Source: Alphaproteobacteria bacterium (GTDB lineage Bacteria; Pseudomonadota; Alphaproteobacteria; Bin95). Taken from it: 36,703 nt of DNA. The notes beneath the pieces were generated by a model. The model did not search any database and was not told where the DNA came from. It saw only the letters and a list, made by a program, of their open reading frames with translations. Positions 1 to 36,703 of this stretch are shown here, in pieces. Location of the stretch: NCBI GenBank assembly GCA_026706245.1, contig JAPOZD010000030.1, positions 1 to 36,703 on the forward strand. The letters run 5' to 3'. The stretch's first letter is position 1. Each line of letters starts with the position of its first letter. The translations under genes and the position numbers were made by a program.

Positions 1-51
1 TTCGGGAGAAAGAAACGACGCTATCTCAGATAGTTAGCACCCAACGGTGCG
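1..51 (-). mobile_element. Probable terminus of an inserted element (rest lies outside the window), related to the junction at ~33020-33076
   Basis: The minus strand reads CGCACCGTTGGGTGCTAACTATCTGAGATAGCGTCGTTTCTTTCTC. This resembles CGCACCTTCGGTTCTAAGGTATTGATACAGCGTTTGTTTTTCCTC upstream of the tandem integrases. It coincides with the abrupt end of the dehalogenase ORF and a drop in GC. Confidence 0.6.
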
Positions 52-1287
52 CTCCACGGTGTCGTAGCCCTGGTCGATCAGCATGACGACGGCGTAGCGG
101 TGATACATCTCTATCGGGCTGCCGTCCTCCCGGTGCGAGAACCAGGCGTAGCGCGGAATCTCGCAAATGCCGGTCAGGTCGGAGCCCAGGAAATAGGAGA
201 GCGCCTTGACCGCGCGCGCATTCGCCGCCGGGTCCCCATAGTGGTCCCTGTCCCATTCCGAAGCCGTTTCGCCGTCCTGGTGGGGCACCATGGCGCGGAT
301 GAGCTGCAGCTGGCTGAAGGACAGCGGGTGCTTGAAGGCGAAGCGGGCGCGCTCGCGCCGGGACTTCTCGCCGAGATCGCCCTTGGCCGCGCGGGTGAAG
401 AAGGCCGCGCGCTGCGGCACGCGCGGCACCTCCTCGTCGATGATGAGGGTGGTGGGCCGGTCCACGCGGCGGACCTGCTCCATCGGGTAGCGGCTCCAGT
501 GCGATTTCCGACGGGCCCGGCGCGCGCGCTCGCGGCCGGAGACGGCGCCGGCGATGCCCTTGCGGTAGGCCCGGTTGCGTGCGCCGGCCGCGCCCGGAGC
601 CAGCGGGCTGTCGCATTCCAGTTCGTAGTTGGTCGAGATTACGGCGAGCGCGAAGCCGCCTTCGATATAGGGGTTGAGCAGCCCGCCGCCTTGCCTGCGC
701 AGGCAGAGCCCGGCCAGCACGGCGAGCCGCTTCCGGTCGAGGCCCTCATCGCCGGCATGGTGGATTCGGGCTTCGAAGCCCATCTGGCGGATATGGCCGG
801 CGGTGCAGCCGGCGATTTCCAGCACGCGCATTTCGGCCGTGGCAGCGACGGCGTCCTCCACCCAGGCACGGGCGAGGTTGCCCCGGTCCGGCAGGGCGGG
901 ACAGGCCACCAGGATGACGACCGCATGGCTGTGGCCTTCCAGCGCCTCAGAGCCTTCCAGCCAGGCGTTCTCCGGGATCCGGCAGATGCCCACCTGGTCG
1001 GCGTCCATGAAATATGAGCAGCCCTTGATGTCCTCGGCGCGCCGGTCGAGCCGGGCCGGCACGGGCGCCGTCTCCGCCGCCGGGCCGCCCTCGGCGAAGC
1101 CGGCGAACAGCTCGCGGTAGTGCAGCACGGCCGGCCCGAGCGCGCCGCCGGCCGCCGCAGCCTCCGTCGGTCCGGCCGGCGGCTGCGCTGCCTCCGCCGC
1201 GACTACGGAGTCGTCCCGCGGCAGCACCTCCATCGGATAGGTGCCGAGATGGAACGGCCGGTTCTTCGATGCGTGGTGGAACAGCAT
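34..1287 (-). pseudogene. rdhA: Catabolic-type (NpRdhA/BhbA-like) reductive dehalogenase, 3'-truncated
   Basis: Internally duplicated module: 'RPFHLGTYPME...IKGCSYFMDADQVGICRIP' and 'SHWSRYPME...VKALSYFLGSDLTGICEIPRYAWFSH...YAVVMLIDQGYDT', as in catabolic B12-dependent dehalogenases. No Tat signal. The ORF stops just after 'DQGYDTVE', before any Fe-S cysteine motif. Confidence 0.8.
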
Positions 1288-30603: not shown

Positions 30604-30679
30604 GGGCCCGTAGTTCAGCGGTTAGAACCCGCCGCTCATAACGGCGTTGTCGCAGGTTCGAATCCTGCCGGGCCCACCA
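30604..30679 (+). tRNA. tRNA with CAT anticodon, most likely tRNA-Ile2 (lysidine-modified)
   Basis: 76-nt cloverleaf: GGGCCCG/CGGGCCC acceptor stem, CTCATAA anticodon loop, GGTTCGAATCC T-arm and encoded CCA. Paired G1-C72 and no GGG/CCC anticodon stem argue against fMet. Confidence 0.93.
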
Positions 30680-31429: not shown

Positions 31430-32506
31430 ATGCGCACGGCTTTCGGAACCCGGTCGACGCGCCGCCGCTTCCTCGCAGGCACGGGCGCTGCGGCGGCGGG
31501 CCTCGCCTTCCTGCCGCAAGCGGCGCCCGCCGGCGAGGAGCCCCGGCTCAATTTCTACAACTGGGACACCTATGTCGGCGAGACCACCCTTGCGGACTTC
31601 AAGGCGCTGACCGGCATATCGGTCCGGATGGACCTCTACGCGGACAATGACAAGCTGTTCGCGAGGCTGAAAGCCGGCAATCCCGGCTACGACGTGATCG
31701 TGCCGACCAACGATTTCGTCGAGCGCATGATCGCCGCCGGCATGCTGATGCCGCTCGATCATGCGGCCATCCCCAACATGGCGAATATCGAGCTTGCCTT
31801 CCGGGACGCCGCCTACGACCTCGGCCGGCGCCACTCCGTCCCCTACATGTGGGGCACGATGGGCATCGGCTACCGCAAGTCCCGCTGCGACGGCGCGCCC
31901 GACAGCTGGCGCTGGCTCTACGACTCGGACCGCTACAGCGGGCGCTGCGCGCTGCTCAGCGAGGCGGGGACGGTACTGGGCGCGGCCTTCAAATATCTGG
32001 GCCATCCGCTCAATTCGGCCGACCCGAAGCATATCGAGGCGGCGGAAAAGCTGATTGTCGCGCAAAAGCCGCATCTCAAGCTGTTCGCGCCGGACAACGG
32101 GCAGGACCTGCTGCTTTCCGGCGAGGTGGACATCGCGATGGAGTGGAACGGCGACATTCTGCAGGCGATGGCGGAGGACGGCGATATCTCCTATGTCGTG
32201 CCGCGCGAGGGGTCGATCCTGTGGGAGGACGTGCTTGCCATCCCGAAAGGCGCGCCGCATCCCGAAAACGCGCACGCCTTCCTGAACTTCATCCTCGACG
32301 CCGAGGCGGGCGCGGCCATTGCGGAGACGATCCGCTATGCGACGCCGAACGCCGCCGCCAGGGCGCTGCTGCCGGAAAGCTACACGGGGAACCCGGGCAT
32401 CTTCCCGGACGATGAGACGCTCGCGGTCTGCGAGCCGGCGCTCTATCAGGGACAGGAGGTTGCGCGGCTCTACGAAGCGGCCTGGACCCGGATCCGGGCG
32501 GCCTGA
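31430..32506 (+). CDS. PotD/PotF-family polyamine ABC transporter substrate-binding protein (Tat signal)
   Basis: 'TRRRFLAG', 'LNFYNWDTY', 'GYDVIVPT', 'SVPYMWGTMGIGY', 'WNGD', 'PREGS..W.D' and 'AHAFLNFIL'. Confidence 0.92.
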   Translation: MRTAFGTRSTRRRFLAGTGAAAAGLAFLPQAAPAGEEPRLNFYNWDTYVGETTLADFKALTGISVRMDLYADNDKLFARLKAGNPGYDVIVPTNDFVERMIAAGMLMPLDHAAIPNMANIELAFRDAAYDLGRRHSVPYMWGTMGIGYRKSRCDGAPDSWRWLYDSDRYSGRCALLSEAGTVLGAAFKYLGHPLNSADPKHIEAAEKLIVAQKPHLKLFAPDNGQDLLLSGEVDIAMEWNGDILQAMAEDGDISYVVPREGSILWEDVLAIPKGAPHPENAHAFLNFILDAEAGAAIAETIRYATPNAAARALLPESYTGNPGIFPDDETLAVCEPALYQGQEVARLYEAAWTRIRAA

Positions 32507-32566
32507 CCGCGGGCCGGGCACGCCGGGAGCCGGACGAAACGATCCTACCTGAAGCGGGGTCCTAGC

Positions 32567-33043
32567 ATGACCGATACCGGAACACCGAAACGCAAGCTGA
32601 TCGAAGGCCGGCCGGCCCTGATCGTCATCGACATCCAGCAATCCGCCTTCGTGGAGAAGGAGGTCCGCTCGATCCCGCACATGCCGGACTATGCCGAGCG
32701 GGTCGCCCGCGCCCGCTTCGCCATCGACCGGGCGCGCGAGACGGGAATCCCGATCGTCTTCATCCAGGAGATCCACCGGGCCGACCTTGTGGATTTCGGC
32801 CGCGAGCTCGACGGCAGCGAGGACATCCACTGCCTCGACAACAACCCGGAAACGGCGCTGGCGAAGGAGGTGACCGGCTTCCGCGAGGGGGATTACCTCA
32901 TCCAGAAGCGCCGCTATTCCGCCTTCTACGGCACCGATCTGGAAATCCTGCTGCGGGGGCTCGGGGCCGACACCCTGCTGCTGACGGGCGGGCTGACCGA
33001 TGTCTGCGTCCACTACACCATCGTGCCGCACCTTCGGTTCTAA
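32567..33043 (+). pseudogene. Isochorismatase-family cysteine hydrolase, 3'-truncated by an insertion
   Basis: Motifs 'PALIVIDIQ', 'KRRYSAFYGTDL..LLRGLG.DTLLLTG' and catalytic 'TDVCVHYT'. Ends seven codons later, lacking the C-terminal strand/helix region of the fold. Confidence 0.8.
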
Positions 33044-33072
33044 GGTATTGATACAGCGTTTGTTTTTCCTCG

Positions 33073-33127
33073 TGCAATCGCAGGTTCGGGGCGGGAATGC
33101 AACCGTGTTTTCCCCCGCCTGCAAGCG
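33073..33127 (+). repeat. Three TGCAANCG direct repeats (candidate arm-type integrase sites)
   Basis: TGCAATCG at 33073, TGCAACCG at 33098 and TGCAAGCG at 33120, between the junction and the first integrase ATG. Confidence 0.5.
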
Positions 33128-33145
33128 GATGCAGGAGGAAAATGC

Positions 33146-34264
33146 ATGTCAACCGCCCGCCTCACAGAGAGCCGGATCGAGGGCTTCGGGCCCCGCAAAT
33201 CGCCCTATGACGTCCGTGATAGCGGGCTGAGGGGCTTCGGCGTTCGCGTCCTTCCCTCGGGGGCCAAACGCTACTTTATCCACAGCCAGCATGAGGGCCG
33301 CCGGGTCTGGAAGACGGTGGGCGACGCCCGCAGCATGGACATCGACGAAGCCCGCCGGCGCGCTGCGGCGGTGCTGGCCGCGCTCCGGCGCGACGAGGCG
33401 CCCGTCCTGCCGGAAGAGAGGCTGTTCGAGGCCGTGGCGGAGGAAGTCTTCGAGCGCTACGGACGGCGCTGGAAGCCCGGAACCCTGAAGGTCAACCGGA
33501 ACTATCTGCGCAGCACGATCCTTCCGTGGTTCGGCGGGATGAACATCGCCGACATCGCAAGGCAGGACGCGCAGCGCTGGTTCGCCTCCCTGCATGCGAC
33601 GCCGGTGGCGGCCGACCGGTCGGCGCCGATCCTTTCCGTCATCATGCGCCAGGCCGAGGTCTACGGCTACCGCCCGGAGGGCAGTAACCCCTGCACCGGC
33701 ATCCGACGTTACCGGCGCAAGGGAAGGGAGCGGTTCCTGTCGGAGCCGGAGCTTCGCCGGCTCGCGCAAGTGCTGGACCGTCACGAGGCGCGCCGTCCCC
33801 GCAAGGCGGCGTTCGTGCGCCTGCTTCTGCTGACCGGCTGCCGCAAGACCGAGATCGCGACGCTGGCCTGGTCCGACTACCGGGACGGGCGGCTGTTCCT
33901 GCGCGACGGCAAGGCGGGGCCCCGGACGGTCTGGCTGTCCTCCCCGGCGCGCGCCGTGCTGGGCAGTCTTCCGCGTGAGAACAAATGGGTCTTTCCCTCG
34001 CCGCGTGGGCAGGGCCCCATGACAGCGGCCGTTTTCGACAAGTTCTGGGGCCGGGTTCGGGAGGAGGCGGGGATCGCCGATGTCCGGCTTCACGACTGCC
34101 GCCATACATATGCCAGCATCGCCATCATGGCTGGCGAGAGCGTCACGACCACGGCGCGGCTGCTCGGACACAACGATGCCGGAACGACGCTGAAATACGC
34201 CCATTTGTCCGATCGCTCGGTGCGCGAGGCCGCCGACGCCCTTGCCGGCATTCTCGGGAGTTGA
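33146..34264 (+). CDS. Tyrosine integrase 1 with N-terminal arm-DNA-binding (DUF4102-like) domain
   Basis: 'YDVRDSGLRGFGVRVLPSGAK'. Catalytic set: 'TGCRKTEI', 'DGKAG', 'HDCRH' and 'LLGH....TTLKYAH'. AGGAGG RBS. Confidence 0.93.
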   Translation: MSTARLTESRIEGFGPRKSPYDVRDSGLRGFGVRVLPSGAKRYFIHSQHEGRRVWKTVGDARSMDIDEARRRAAAVLAALRRDEAPVLPEERLFEAVAEEVFERYGRRWKPGTLKVNRNYLRSTILPWFGGMNIADIARQDAQRWFASLHATPVAADRSAPILSVIMRQAEVYGYRPEGSNPCTGIRRYRRKGRERFLSEPELRRLAQVLDRHEARRPRKAAFVRLLLLTGCRKTEIATLAWSDYRDGRLFLRDGKAGPRTVWLSSPARAVLGSLPRENKWVFPSPRGQGPMTAAVFDKFWGRVREEAGIADVRLHDCRHTYASIAIMAGESVTTTARLLGHNDAGTTLKYAHLSDRSVREAADALAGILGS

Positions 34265-34267
34265 GCG

Positions 34268-35446
34268 ATGCCGGACCGCAGGAGGCTCACCGATGCCGGC
34301 ATTGCGCGGCTCCGGGCCGGGGCGCGCGAATATACCGTATGGGACACGCAGGTCGCCGGTCTCGGCGTGCGGGTGCGTCCCTCCGGCAGCCGGACCTTCA
34401 TCTACCACCGCAAGACGGGCCGGGGCGTGCGGAAACTGTCTTTCGGCCCGGCGGCGCTCAGCGAGGTGGAAGCGGTGCGCCGCGCCTGCATGGAGGCGGC
34501 GGCAAGCGGGGACACGGGCGCCAGTAACGAGCCTCGCGAAAAGGCGCCCCGGTTCCGGGACTTCGTCGCCGGCCCGTGGAGGAGGGACCGCTTCGCGCGC
34601 TGCAAGCCCTCCACGCAGAGAAACTTCGACGGCCTCCTGGAGCGGCAGTTGCTCCCGGCCTTCGGGGCCCGGCGCATCGACCGGATCGCCCGGCGCGCGG
34701 TCATCCGCTGGTTCGAGGCCTGCAGCCGGACCGCGCCGGGGACGGCCAATGCCGCTCTCGACCTGCTCGGTCACATCCTCAACCATGCGCTGGCGCTCGG
34801 GCATATCGGGACCAACCCGACAAGAGGCATCGCCCGCAATCCGGGCCGGAAGATGACGCGCTTCCTGTCGCGCGAGGAGATCGCCCGCCTCCACCGGGTC
34901 CTCGACCGCCATGCCGCAGGGTCCCGGTCGGAAGCGCAGCAGGCCGACACGATCCGCCTGCTGCTGCTCACCGGCTGCCGCAAGGGTGAAATCCTGCGTC
35001 TTCGCCGGGAGGAAGTGAAGGGCGACCGGCTGGAGCTCCAGGACAGCAAGACCGGGCCCCGAACGCTCCTGATCAACGGCCCGGCCAGGGAGAGCGTCGC
35101 GCGCCGCATGGCGGAAGGGACCGGCCCCTGGCTGTTCCCTTCTGTCAGGGACCCGTCGCGGCCCCAGTGCCGGGGCCTGCCCTTCTGGTACCGGGCGCGC
35201 CGCGAGGCCGGGATCGAGGATGTGCGCCTGCACGATCTGCGCCATACGGTAGCCAGCCAGGCGGCGATGAACGGCGTTCCGCTGCCCACGGTCGCCGGCC
35301 TGCTCGGCCACAGCAATGTGCGCATGACCATGCGCTACGCCCATGTCGGGGACCGCGAGGTCGAAGCGGCGGCCGAGCGGGTTGGCCGGGCCATCATGTC
35401 CATGATGGGCGGCACCGAAAATCTGCCCAGCTGCGGAACCCGTTGA
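34268..35446 (+). CDS. Tyrosine integrase 2 with N-terminal arm-DNA-binding domain, paralogue of integrase 1
   Basis: 'YTVWDTQVAGLGVRVRPSGSR'. Catalytic set: 'TGCRKGEI', 'DSKTG', 'HDLRH' and 'LLGHSNVRMTMRYAH'. Confidence 0.93.
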   Translation: MPDRRRLTDAGIARLRAGAREYTVWDTQVAGLGVRVRPSGSRTFIYHRKTGRGVRKLSFGPAALSEVEAVRRACMEAAASGDTGASNEPREKAPRFRDFVAGPWRRDRFARCKPSTQRNFDGLLERQLLPAFGARRIDRIARRAVIRWFEACSRTAPGTANAALDLLGHILNHALALGHIGTNPTRGIARNPGRKMTRFLSREEIARLHRVLDRHAAGSRSEAQQADTIRLLLLTGCRKGEILRLRREEVKGDRLELQDSKTGPRTLLINGPARESVARRMAEGTGPWLFPSVRDPSRPQCRGLPFWYRARREAGIEDVRLHDLRHTVASQAAMNGVPLPTVAGLLGHSNVRMTMRYAHVGDREVEAAAERVGRAIMSMMGGTENLPSCGTR

Positions 35447-35557
35447 ATTTATCGAACACTGGAAAGTTGACAGCCCCATCACCCTCCGCTGCCCGGCAAC
35501 ATCGGACGACGACCAGCATAGCTGAGGCAGCCGCCCCGCAGTTGCCTTGCCTTTGGG

Positions 35558-35585
35558 CTGTCCGATAATCCGTCCTATCTGCCAG
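35558..35585. other. Degenerate lox/dif-like crossover site at the 5' end of the Cre-like gene
   Basis: CTGTCCGATAA-TCCGTC-CTATCTGCCAG: 11-bp arms (8/11 complementary) around a 6-bp spacer. Confidence 0.4.
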
Positions 35586-36477
35586 ACAGGCGGCCGGCCC
35601 CGCTCGCGATCCCCGACCGGGCCGCCCAGGACCGCCACAGGCAAGCGCAGCGCAACGCATGGTCGCCCCATACCCGCCGCGCCTATCTCGCCGCCTGGCG
35701 GCGCTGGGAAGCATGGGCCGGCGAGCGCGGCCTGGAGACGCTCCCGGCCAACCCGGACCATATCGGCCTGTTCCTCGCCGCGCGCCGGCTCGCCGGCGTC
35801 GGCCTCGACGCGGTCCGCCAGGACGCCGCCGCCCATCGCCTCGCCGGCCAGGACAACCCGTGCGCCGCGGCCGACGTGACGCTCGCCCTGCGCGGCTATG
35901 CCCGCGACGACGCCGGGCGCGAGGTCCGCTAGGCTCGCCCGCTCGATACCGAGGCCGTCATGGCGATCCGCCTGCACCTTCGCGGCCGGGTCAACCGGTC
36001 CGCCCGCGCCGCCCGCGACATGGCTCTTGTCTCCGTCATGGCCGACGCCGGCCTCCGGCGCTCCGAAGCCGCCGCCCTGCTATGGAGCGACATTGCCGGG
36101 CCGGAGCCGGACGGGTCCGGCCGCGTCACGATCCGGCGCTCCTACAAGCCATATAACCCGGCATTTCGGCCTTGCCGTCTCACTAAAACACTACTATACA
36201 CGTCTTCGATGCGAGGAAGAACGACTTTCCACCTGAATGCCTACAAGCAATGTAACTCGATTTGTTCAGGCGCACCATCGCGCGCCGGATCGCGGCGCTC
36301 GCCGAAGCCGCCGAGCTCGGGCCGGGCTACTCCGGCCGCGTCGGCATGGCGATCCGCATGACGCGCGAGGGCGCTCCCAACGCCGTCGTCATGCGCCAGG
36401 GACGATGGGAGACGCCGGAAATGGTCGCCCGATACACGCGATCCGAAGCCGCCGGCGAGGCGCTCAAATATCTCTAA
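35582..36477 (+). pseudogene. Cre-like tyrosine recombinase pseudogene
   Basis: One frame reads 'SPHTRRAYLAAWRRWEAW...LPANP...AHRLAGQDNP...LRGYAR', then an in-frame TAG at 35930, then 'RDMALVSVMADAGLRRSE...GRVTIRRS'. Foreign sequence fills ~36141-36268. Another frame resumes 'RTIARRI...GYSGRVGMA...QGRW....MVARY'. No start codon found. Confidence 0.85.
36141..36256 (+). repeat. Pair of 17-bp imperfect direct repeats bracketing an AT-rich promoter-like segment
   Basis: CCTACAAGCCATATAAC (36141) and CCTACAAGCAATGTAAC (36240), 15/17 identical. TTGCCG-N17-TATACA lies at 36172-36200. Confidence 0.55.
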
Positions 36478-36703
36478 CCGGGCGAGCGCGATCCACCCGC
36501 CGCGCGCTCTAGCTCCCGGATCAAGTCTTTGCTAATGTTTGTGCCATCGACTAATCGATACAGCAGAATACAGCAGAACACAAAAGAGACACCGTTATGA
36601 GTGCATTGGATCGCCCCGAAGACCGAGTAAAAAAACAATCGGCCATAAACTGCATCAAAGACAACAGCAAAGCCAAATGGCGCGCCCAAGGAATTGGAGG
36701 CAG
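36474..36703 (-). other. Low-GC sequence, possibly the 3' end of a foreign gene entering from beyond the window
   Basis: Sharp GC drop after ~36520 and an open, hydrophobic minus-strand frame ending at 36474. No family recognised. Confidence 0.3.

Follow-up and report, generated by a model that had tools for sequence, protein, structure and literature searches.

An island interrupting an isochorismatase gene carries a conserved pair of arm-type tyrosine integrases

We analysed a 36,703-nt stretch of DNA (the window; contig JAPOZD010000030.1 of the alphaproteobacterial assembly GCA_026706245.1), and consider it fairly probable that it holds the integrase-proximal end of an island of ~30 kb, from a large site-specific integrative family whose paired integrases act together. 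The invariant core of the family comprises a left end of ~120 bp, an int1-int2 operon and a conserved, AT-richer right end of ~250 bp, and the sequence between operon and right end is variable cargo. The features of the window are as follows.

1-62, minus strand: left end of a second element, of a different subfamily; 37-50 is the palindrome and 58-62 is ACACC in reverse complement.
32567-33024, plus strand: 5′ three quarters of an interrupted isochorismatase-family gene (PF00857 profile positions 2-132 of 175).
33015-33024, plus strand: attL core, ACACC followed by ATCGT, from filled/empty comparison; the crossover region and one arm of a 10-bp imperfect direct repeat.
33025-33145, plus strand: left end of the element, kept upstream of every int1 copy.
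33146-34264, plus strand: int1, arm-type tyrosine integrase of 372 aa.
34268-35446, plus strand: int2, arm-type tyrosine integrase paralogous to int1, 392 aa.
35447-36703, plus strand: start of the variable cargo; the contig stops inside the element.

Integrase genes. The initial annotation, made from the letters and an open reading frame list, had described two paralogous integrases 3 bp apart with full catalytic sets, and the reading frames (same strand, 3 bases from int1 stop to int2 start), domains and residues agree with it. Both proteins match Pfam Phage_integrase (PF00589; E 3e-20 for Int1, 9e-21 for Int2) and SAM-like/central domains. Int1 matches Arm-DNA-bind_3 (E 4e-8), and Int2 gave no Pfam arm-domain match at E ≤ 0.01; an arm domain in Int2 is predicted from its alignment to Int1, which begins at residue 6 (39.7% identity over 370 aa), and from its nearest Atlas clusters, where 92-100% of members have Arm-DNA-bind_3. 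The catalytic residues, in own numbering for Int1/Int2, are R233/R238, K256/K261, H316/H322, R319/R325, H342/H348 and Y351/Y357. The pair thus has the arm-type (lambda/P4-like) makeup of arm-binding N-domain, core-binding domain and R-K-H-R-H-Y catalytic domain. Across 60 pairs the lengths are 367-378 aa for Int1 and 373-457 aa for Int2.

Insertion site. The PF00857 match of the isochorismatase reading frame (32567-33043) ends at profile position 132 of 175, and orthologues in 11 same-genus genomes can be aligned only up to residue 147-157 of 158. Intact orthologues are present in genomes of the genus. The missing 3′ part lies on contig C258 of the same genome (8867-8114). Intact genes read CACTACACCTTCGT up to the break and CGATGG after it, and the window reads CACTACACCATCGTGCCGCACC at the same point, which places the break at 33015-33024, 122-131 bp upstream of the int1 ATG; the right end on C258 has ACACCTTCGT as the counterpart of the attL core. 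The junction near int1 had indeed been read as cutting this gene. The nearby tRNA gene had been discounted as the insertion site, correctly: tRNA-Met (30604-30679) is 2.3 kb from the junction and the insertion lies inside a gene. A proposed preference for coding genes also finds backing beyond this gene, with insertion within coding sequence at no fewer than 38 of 67 left junctions. That count comes from a crude GC3 call that demands a frame open throughout the 300 flanking bases, which undercounts insertions near gene starts, and is therefore a lower bound. A related junction had been noted at the window start; positions 1-62 are the left end of another copy, to which five other contigs have a match of 82-90% in the region upstream of int1, and the integrases of that element would lie beyond the contig start.

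Mobility and copy number. Ten genomes of the same genus have the empty site, as do contigs of two of the four sponge-metagenome runs compared. In the third run (X1) a contig bridges the filled junction, and in the fourth (X7) none of the contigs crosses the junction with sufficient sequence on either side to be counted. Integrase matches number from 5 to at least 64 per genome of the genus. The genome of the window has 12 left ends, and a strict left-end pattern found 9 in genome G009 and 15 in genome G016 (control matches 0 and 3). Tandem and head-to-head arrays of elements occur at loci L040, L052 and L057. The unit had been called transposon-like, which holds for its mobility and multiple copies; it is no classical transposon, and looks more like an integrative mobilizable island with site-specific insertion. 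With dozens of matches per genome, islands of 7-31 kb and gene disruption, the family seems to have a major part in shaping the genomes of sponge symbionts.

Pairing. Each of the nine int1-type genes in the genome of the window (≥57% identity) is followed by an int2-type gene, one of them cut by a contig end. The 80 loci taken from other genomes contain 67 near-full int1-type genes; int2 follows in full at 55, disrupted at 5 and cut by the locus end at 2, while 3 have no room for int2 and 2 lack any. Hence 62 of 64 evaluable relatives are paired, always int1 then int2, at a spacing of 3 to about 60 bp and with a single left end for each pair. In a tree of 60 pairs, including one from the Shewanella oneidensis MR-1 megaplasmid, one branch splits int1 from int2 (SH-aLRT 99). 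The two distance matrices correlate at r = 0.98, a value reached by none of 999 permutations, although co-divergence is expected of any two linked genes and is no proof of functional coupling. The pair is accordingly no chance neighbourhood of mostly solitary homologues, and the separate co-evolving clades that the initial annotation proposed to look for are present. These comparisons support the pair as an obligate, co-inherited module and the conserved engine of the element family.

Ends and core. Both ends were mapped for 14 elements of 7.2 to 30.8 kb, from 7 of the 12 left ends in the genome of the window, 4 of 15 in G016 and 3 of 9 in G009. For G009 and G016 the search reached 20 kb downstream from every left end. 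One right end, the fourth in G016, lies 30.8 kb away from its left end and was located via the other flank of the interrupted gene. Right ends in the genome of the window were sought genome-wide by motif and repeat. Since the 10-mer search with up to two mismatches is very noisy, only matches with a low-GC, family-like right terminus were retained; the right end at L124 was accepted on an exact 10-mer and low GC alone. Blastn of the C258 right end against its own genome gave one weak relative only, because right ends differ between subfamilies. Direct repeats sought in flanks of 5 kb around the 80 loci were chance-like matches only, as the elements are larger than these flanks.

Comparison of filled and empty sites, the proposed route to the ends and the target motif, yielded the attL core of the window. 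A 10-bp repeat, ACACC plus five further bases, stands at all 14 attL/attR pairs (11 perfect, 3 with one mismatch). Target choice had been thought relaxed; this core, with five element-specific bases at every paired end, speaks against that. Of 67 distinct left junctions, 52 have ACACC as the motif, 7 have ACACG and 3 have ACACA, and a C stands directly before the palindrome stem in 66. The left end next to int1 in the window has, after this invariant C, the palindrome GCACC-TTC-GGTTC (33028-33040), TAAGG, TTGATACAGCG, a TTCCTCG motif (33066-33072), TGCAA repeats and the int1 ribosome-binding site. Of 7 elements, 6 have an inverted CGAGGAA motif close to the right end. GC content was computed for nine right ends and is 41-57% over the last 150 bp (for some, 120 bp) up to the right junction, in a genome of ~70% GC.

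The stems of the palindrome are GCACC/GGTGC at 48 of the 67 sites and doubly changed, GCATC/GATGC, at 9; the other 10 have single mismatches, and loops are of 3, 4 or 5 bases. The double change requires at least five switches on the int1 tree. The two arms covary, which would also be expected of a symmetric protein-binding site, and the stem is only five bases long. The core itself is asymmetric: the ACACC arm is present in element and target, and the palindrome arm belongs to the element only, the target side there being unconserved.

These features suggest a mechanism. Excision and integration would take place by tyrosine-recombinase exchange within the 10-bp core, via a putative circular intermediate. 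ACACC, common to the family, is probably read by protein, and the five bases after it, which would have to match the target nearly, are probably read by strand-exchange homology. Int1 and Int2 may form a heteromeric recombinase in the manner of XerC/XerD, with one paralogue for the ACACC arm and the other for the palindromic arm (C-GCACC-loop-GGTGC-TAA) as the putative assignment, and with the arm-binding N-domains bridging to the subterminal repeats TTCCTCG and CGAGGAA. A heteromer with one protein per half-site would be compatible with the asymmetric core.

The five-base word is partly inherited between related copies. Elements 90-95% identical at different sites have on average 2.38 of the 5 bases in common, compared with 1.34-1.41 for more distant pairs. 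There are exceptions, pairs 94.5% and 95.8% identical with 0 and 1 bases in common, and such divergent words in close elements make a purely conservative homology model insufficient. The three attL/attR mismatches are always at the first base after ACACC, and there the empty sites in sister genomes agree with attR and not attL; this polarity in three of three has p = 0.125 under a 50:50 expectation. Exchange may be strand-biased, with the element keeping its own word at attL. As a tentative extension of the paired-integrase reading, these could be two-component integrases with a split address, ACACC read by protein and an element-borne five-base word read by homology, the word drifting or being swapped. 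If that were true, the family would be naturally re-targetable, which would explain the dozens of different genes colonised per genome, and retargeting of a natural integrase by a change of overlap would be of interest for genome engineering.

It is also possible, if rather unlikely, that only one of the integrases integrates and excises and that its paralogue is accessory, with a role in directionality or regulation, in resolving tandem copies or multimers, or in providing a second att specificity. Lone arm-type integrases suffice in classical islands and phages, and all relatives in the phage database are solitary (one place per record, <30% identity). Moreover, the copies compared have no conserved excisionase-like gene after int2, and directionality could sit in a paralogue. 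However, R, K, HxxR, H and Y are retained in 59-60 of 60 relatives of each paralogue over deep divergence, and in both the arm, core-binding and catalytic regions are full-length. Catalytic residues should be lost from a paralogue with a purely regulatory role, as has happened in GinC and Tfp according to the parts of the reports at hand (PMC5385486, PMC10214605). The asymmetric core, too, suits two specificities.

Cargo and mobilization. The DNA after int2 has no similarity between copies, and no third gene is conserved. A third tyrosine-recombinase gene in the cargo of the window, at about 35640-36477, is decayed and has an in-frame TAG (35930-35932). Both of its fragments give weak Pfam Phage_integrase matches; by eye, a solo right-end remnant of another family member lies inside it (about 36142-36268). 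The sister element in G016 lacks this gene. No conjugation gene had been visible in the window, because the contig ends inside the element; that impression does not extend to the whole island, since its remainder on C258 includes NikA-like genes and the coding sequence for the C-terminal portion of a TrwC-type relaxase. The complete G016 sister has a full TrwC relaxase-helicase and a NikA-like gene. The relaxase would make the element a mobilizable island, and some family members are probably of this kind: TrwC matches are on only 4 contigs of the genome of the window, against 12 left ends, and a 7.2-kb G009 element has an SSB gene and no recognised relaxase. In C258, C237, G016 and C404 there is a NikA-like ribbon-helix-helix reading frame within the element, 170-510 bp from the right end. 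Four further right-end contigs are not long enough for a judgement, and reading-frame picking gave none near the right ends of the G009 elements, where the SSB gene is found instead. The NikA-like frame was not counted as a core gene.

We think it very unlikely that one member of the pair is a mobilization protein, a MOB_M-type relaxase nicking an oriT formed by the palindrome. MOB_M relaxases are related to tyrosine recombinases and sometimes annotated as integrases, and lie near an integrase in 96% of cases, according to the portion of the preprint available (bioRxiv 10.64898/2026.01.13.699239), and here a conserved inverted repeat does adjoin the integrase genes. On the other side, existing profiles systematically miss MOB_M relaxases by the same account, and Int1 and Int2 both score ~1e-20 on Phage_integrase, with 40% identity between the two over their full length. 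None of the relaxase or mobilization models of NCBIfam was matched, and the elements examined have ordinary TrwC relaxase and NikA-like genes for mobilization.

Known systems. Integrative elements with several recombinases (Tn554, GInt, SE, RIT) form a small group whose mechanisms have yet to be resolved. The int1-int2 family is set apart from all four by descriptions of their defining features and is apparently undescribed; we found no account of tandem arm-type integrase elements in the article texts covered. That the pair fits none of XerCD, RIT and Tn554, as the initial annotation held, is borne out by gene number, arm domains and protein lengths.

The nearest in layout are GInts, whose operon ginABCD has three recombinase-like genes, one without a catalytic residue, and a small HLH gene, all four essential; in pseudomonads they occupy a single site, in an ABC-transporter gene, and the hosts reported in the sections at hand are Gamma- and Betaproteobacteria (PMC5385486, Bardaji et al. 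2017). Both have a 5′ recombinase operon, then variable cargo, then a short AT-rich far end, with flanking 10-11 nt imperfect direct repeats and insertion inside a gene, and the likeness extends to att variants, which in GInts can shift specificity (same source). In contrast to GInts, the int1-int2 family has two conserved recombinase genes, both fully catalytic, and no further conserved gene (the third recombinase is decayed cargo), and is inserted at many sites having ACACC in common.

In strand-biased circularizing integrative elements (SE) the genes run intA-tfp-intB-srap, the Tfp between the recombinases being non-catalytic; one recombinase is ordinary and the other large, six bases differ between attL and attR (footprint and fingerprint), and the passages available report them only in Gammaproteobacteria, at 1-2 copies per replicon (PMC10214605, Idola et al. 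2023). They share with our elements two catalytic tyrosine recombinases at the left end, imperfect-inverted-repeat termini and few selected targets (same partial source), as well as the hint of strand polarity at junctions (3/3 in the int1-int2 elements). Unlike in SE, attL and attR are near-identical, and nothing lies between int1 and int2, both catalytic.

Tn554 has two adjacent tyrosine recombinases, both required, and is site-specific; as far as the excerpts describe, Tn554-like elements have one abnormally long partner (>600 aa), usually tnpC, and occur in Firmicutes and Actinobacteria (PMC3414803, PMC10214605). The adjacency and site-specific insertion recur here; the Tn554 recombinases, in those excerpts, are not arm-type paralogues of each other, whereas our proteins have 372 and 392 aa and no conserved third gene accompanies them. 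RIT elements have three consecutive simple (Xer-like) recombinases, RitA, RitB and RitC, described in the parts at hand as without arm-binding domains or cargo islands; multiple co-oriented tyrosine recombinases and occurrence in Alpha- and Betaproteobacteria are common ground (PMC3414803, PMC8138268), and two genes and an Arm-DNA-bind_3 N-domain are the difference. BIM elements were rejected as a match, having, in the part of the source at hand, one recombinase and a non-recombinase (PMC3414803).

With XerC/XerD at dif the resemblance, in our working model only, is that of two paralogues each on a different half of one asymmetric core; unlike Int1 and Int2, the Xer proteins are chromosomal housekeeping recombinases, without arm-binding domains, not part of a mobile element and usually encoded by non-adjacent genes. 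CTnDOT/NBU-type elements have a short conserved box beside a variable overlap region and many possible targets, with a single integrase and overlap homology that is largely dispensable. In the int1-int2 elements, unlike these, the five-base word is identical in 11 of 14 pairs and one base off in 3 (on CTnDOT/NBU integration, see the abstract of PMC2817482).

For the pair to be a diverged GInt, SE, Tn554-like or RIT member is most improbable. The tripartite GInt-like layout, the imperfect direct repeats and the insertion into a gene would fit. Against it stand two recombinase genes in place of three, both catalytic, with no conserved third or fourth gene, and proteins of about 370-390 aa without a long TnpA-type partner or TnpC; GmtZ, the gamma-mobile-trio model of NCBIfam, gives 19 bits where its cut-off is 600, and ginC-ginD blocks are reported, in the part of the paper at hand, not to be found in Alphaproteobacteria (PMC10214605). 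Chance juxtaposition or tandem accretion of two single-integrase elements, which the arrays at L040, L052 and L057 might bring to mind, has next to no probability given the tight spacing and constant order, the two reciprocal clades with one common history, the single left end per pair and the near-universal pairing.

Among multi-recombinase elements, two full-length, arm-type, catalytically intact paralogues make an architecture of their own. With hundreds of copies, many filled and empty sites and a clear asymmetric 10-bp core, the family offers natural study material. Cultured Shewanella, Vibrio, Photobacterium, sphingomonads and Rhodobacterales have related pairs on plasmids, which makes experiments feasible. 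In similar habitats, MAG contigs that bear the label of other phyla also have relatives.

Boundaries, flanking repeats, empty sites and copy number together establish that int1 and int2, two adjacent tyrosine integrase genes, belong to an integrative element that moves through tyrosine recombination at a core of ACACC plus five bases (ACACC+N5). The window is one entire 36.7-kb contig (C21) of a fragmented source assembly with 455 contigs, 3.49 Mb and ~70% GC. Its relevant features are:

32567-33043, isochorismatase-family ORF directly upstream of int1, with a profile match ending at position 132 of 175
33146-34264, + strand, int1, 372 aa
34268-35446, + strand, int2, 392 aa, starting 3 bases 3′ of int1
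30604-30679, tRNA-Met, the sole tRNA of the window, 2.3 kb from the junction
1-62, − strand, second left end, of a different subfamily

The ORFs, the Pfam hits and the curtailed profile match agree with the initial annotation that two integrase genes adjoin a broken isochorismatase gene; it was also right that the tRNA is not the insertion site, the junction lying in the isochorismatase gene. Int1 and Int2 alike match the Phage_integrase catalytic domain and SAM-like/central domains. Int1 also matches Arm-DNA-bind_3; the profile search gave no arm-domain match for Int2, which aligns with Int1 from residue 6 (39.7% identity over 370 residues) and whose nearest Atlas clusters have the arm domain in 92-100% of members.

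Same-genus orthologues of the isochorismatase gene are uninterrupted and read ...CACTACACCTTCGT|CGATGGCC, where the window reads ...CACTACACCATCGTGCCGCACCTTCGGTTCTAAGG. The absent 3′ part of the gene is on C258, another contig of the source genome, where it follows a right end of higher AT content, ...CTAACTATGTTAGGC ACACCTTCGT CGACGGCC. The two junction sequences thus give ACACC(A/T)TCGT as the repeat on either side of the element. A related element (int1 85% identical) occupies exactly the same isochorismatase site in G016, a complete genome of another species of the genus, where it spans 30.8 kb with the same flanking repeat (G016:C4:999727-1030517; loci L093/L094). This sister element encodes a 1510-aa TrwC relaxase-helicase, a NikA-like protein, McrBC, a LysR regulator, an MFS transporter and an AMP-binding enzyme. 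On C258, the source genome's own element has NikA-like ribbon-helix-helix genes together with the C-terminal portion of a TrwC-type relaxase, so the earlier remark that no conjugation gene is visible reflects the contig end and fails for the element as a whole. A run of N within this cargo (L095, on C258, ~2030-2650) breaks the relaxase-region ORFs. A blastn comparison of window 35447-36703 with the sister cargo right after int2 gave no match; the shared site with unrelated cargo could be due either to independent insertion at a preferred site or to cargo turnover.

The window stretch is present in sponge and marine metagenomes, and evidence that the element moved recently comes from contigs (rather than reads) of four sponge-metagenome runs, which were compared with 32400-33700. 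The filled junction is bridged in run X1 by a 698-nt contig covering 32820-33517. Contigs of runs X2 and X3, from two studies, match up to 33024 and then continue CGACGGCCATCAGGGCGAC..., the empty site; they differ at 2 of 74 and 3 of 267 matched bases. One contig of run X7 extends only 20 letters beyond the junction and is not counted as bridging. Further metagenome contigs place the same left end beside other host sequences.

The source genome holds many copies. By tblastn, int1-type genes of 57-85% identity lie on eight further contigs, each with an int2-type gene directly behind it (incomplete in one case, where the contig ends), and a common left end is found ~105-125 bp upstream of every int1. 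A strict left-end pattern finds 12 such ends, each against different host sequence. One is at window 1-62, confirming the related junction suspected at the window start; there the contig starts inside another copy, whose left end adjoins an ORF of 417 aa (34-1287, minus strand; no Pfam match) at its 3′ end. A strict left-end pattern finds nine ends in G009, another genome of the genus, and 15 in G016 (reversed control, 0 and 3). Of 16 further same-genus genomes searched, 15 have matches at E≤1e-40, with counts per genome from 5 up to 64 or more; pairs number about half of this, because both paralogues hit.

We collected 76 left ends, which collapse to 67 distinct sites. The host-side motif is ACACC at 52 of these, ACACG at seven and ACACA at three, while two have no ACAC; a further three, whose last ACAC sat right at the border of the scanned region, have no spacing value. 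The motif precedes the element's stem by 6-9 bases, and the base before the stem is C in 66 of 67 sites. Coding flanks are clear at ≥38 of the 67, a crude lower bound, in either orientation relative to int1. Right ends were sought within 20 kb downstream of each left end in G009 and G016, by the other flank of the interrupted gene for a fourth G016 end 30.8 kb off, and genome-wide by motif and repeat in the source genome. This paired both ends of 14 elements (7 of 12 left ends in the source genome, 3 of 9 in G009 and 4 of 15 in G016). All 14 have ACACC plus five bases at both flanks, a target motif that contradicts the relaxed target choice initially supposed. The repeat is perfect in eleven pairs; in the other three a single base differs, each time the one directly following ACACC. 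Outside the ten core bases the flanks diverge: element sequence (C-GCACC...) comes next on the left, host sequence on the right. Sister-genome empty sites for the three imperfect cases have the attR (right junction) base and not the attL (left junction) base; the five attL bases are therefore element-derived and the five attR bases target-derived. On these sequences the process appears to be site-specific exchange between similar cores, not target duplication.

Related elements tend to have a common five-base word even where their sites differ, for example WTCGT in the clade that includes the window's element, NGACG in a second clade and TTCAT in L046/L047. Pairs of 90-95% identity share a mean of 2.38 of five word bases, versus 1.34-1.41 in more distant pairs, and some closely related pairs share none, a rapid change of the word.

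Right after the core, the element has GCACC, a loop of 3-5 bases (3 in 55 sites, 4 in 11, 5 in one), GGTGC and TAA. Of the 67 stems, 48 are GCACC/GGTGC, nine are the doubly changed GCATC/GATGC and 10 have single mismatches. The int1 tree requires at least five switches for the double change and at least four for loop length, counts from a quick tree that weak branches or end exchange between elements may inflate. Complementarity of the arms is clearly constrained. The variable spacing may speak somewhat more for folding of a strand than for a rigid site bound by a dimer, but the stem has only five pairs. Such conservation is not seen on the target side; the core is therefore asymmetric. TTCCTCG, ~40 bases into the left end, recurs inverted as CGAGGAA ~75 bases inside the right end in six of seven elements compared; these are candidate arm-type sites. 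Right ends of one subfamily have ~250 conserved bases and the terminus T(T/C)NGGC; those of another end ...AAATCTCATTTGAGATTT.

A scan of one genome per species gave 115 relatives, and the best 80 loci among them were analysed. These include 67 near-full int1-type genes, 55 with a full int2 after them; of the others, five have a disrupted int2, two an int2 cut by the locus end, three no room and two, distant matches of 36-41%, no int2. In these loci int1-type genes are mostly paired rather than solitary. In an alignment of 60 complete pairs, 59-60 of 60 Int1 and 59-60 of 60 Int2 retain the catalytic Arg, Lys, His-x-x-Arg, His and Tyr, as the initial annotation had read for the window, and both proteins look active. 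A maximum likelihood tree (quick search) of the 120 proteins parts Int1 from Int2 by a single branch (SH-aLRT 99), giving the separate clades whose existence had been in question. The Shewanella oneidensis MR-1 pair divides as other pairs do, one member on each side, and the duplication therefore predates spread across Alpha- and Gammaproteobacteria. Patristic distances in the two halves correlate at r = 0.98 (0 of 999 permutations as high), which shows linked inheritance and does not by itself demonstrate functional co-evolution. Chance juxtaposition is excluded by these reciprocal clades and by the pairing of 62 of 64 evaluable int1-type genes.

The most economical reading is that Int1 and Int2 would form a XerC/XerD-like heteromer, one paralogue acting on the ACACC arm and the other on the palindromic arm. 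We infer this from the universal retention of the pair, the tight coupling of the genes (a gap of 3 bases in the window, a 4-base overlap in the two plasmid regions examined), the intact catalytic residues of both proteins and the association of the pair with an asymmetric core. In the main rival reading one integrase suffices, and its paralogue serves in an accessory or separate capacity. That either paralogue acts like a relaxase is unlikely, since both have ordinary integrase profiles and the elements examined carry a TrwC relaxase.

GInt has the closest layout, with an operon at one end, cargo and an AT-rich far end, and likewise shows 10-11 nt imperfect repeats and insertion into a gene (PMC5385486); its defining ginABCD set is absent here. 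Also absent are the gene order intA-tfp-intB-srap of SE (PMC10214605), the long-plus-short recombinase pair plus tnpC of Tn554-like elements and the RIT recombinase trio. The NCBIfam gamma-mobile-trio integrase model scored far below its cut-off. A literature search, with supplementary tables outside its scope, found no description of such elements. We file the paired-integrase family among multi-recombinase integrative islands.

Most of the 80 loci come from uncultured Alphaproteobacteria, with a few contigs assigned to Dehalococcoidia, Vicinamibacterales, Thiotrichales or Paracoccaceae by their labels. In L049, L070, L088 and L086, Int1 relatives of 60-92% identity lie on MAG contigs that bear the labels Dehalococcoidia, Vicinamibacterales, Thiotrichales and Gammaproteobacteria, which reflects either transfer between phyla that share a habitat or errors in binning. 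Plasmid records with two matching places (33-41% identity) include the MR-1 megaplasmid, Vibrio, Photobacterium, Aliivibrio, sphingomonads and Rhodobacterales; annotation in the two regions examined is generic only. Relatives in enterobacteria and phages occur singly, at under 30% identity. Upstream of the MR-1 pair (L091, 5800-6000), ACACC is followed by a T-rich TTGTTTTTTCTC-like stretch and the GCACC/GGTGC palindrome is absent; the ACACC box may have arisen before the palindrome did.

Elements also occur close together. On contig C421 of the source genome (L126), left ends at 2409 (−) and 3991 (+) belong to divergently oriented elements with only 1.6 kb of host DNA between them, and L040, L052 and L057 have integrase pairs in tandem or head-to-head arrays, truncated int1 copies included, which suggest insertion beside or into resident copies. 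In the window cargo, a third tyrosine-recombinase gene (~35640-36477) is decayed, with an in-frame TAG at 35930-35932 and its middle replaced. The ~127 bases at ~36142-36268 resemble, by eye, the G016 sister right end (CGAGGAA ... GCCTACAAGC ... TTCAGGC, then GCACC ATCGC) and look like a solo right-end remnant of a nested insertion, deleted later. The AT-rich contig end (36480-36703) has no other match in the source genome at E≤1e-5. Two G009 elements have an SSB gene ~1.8 kb inside the right end (L104, 5086-5511, Pfam PF00436; L110, 9188-9613), with ~1.7 kb lacking a clear ORF between it and the conserved right terminus.
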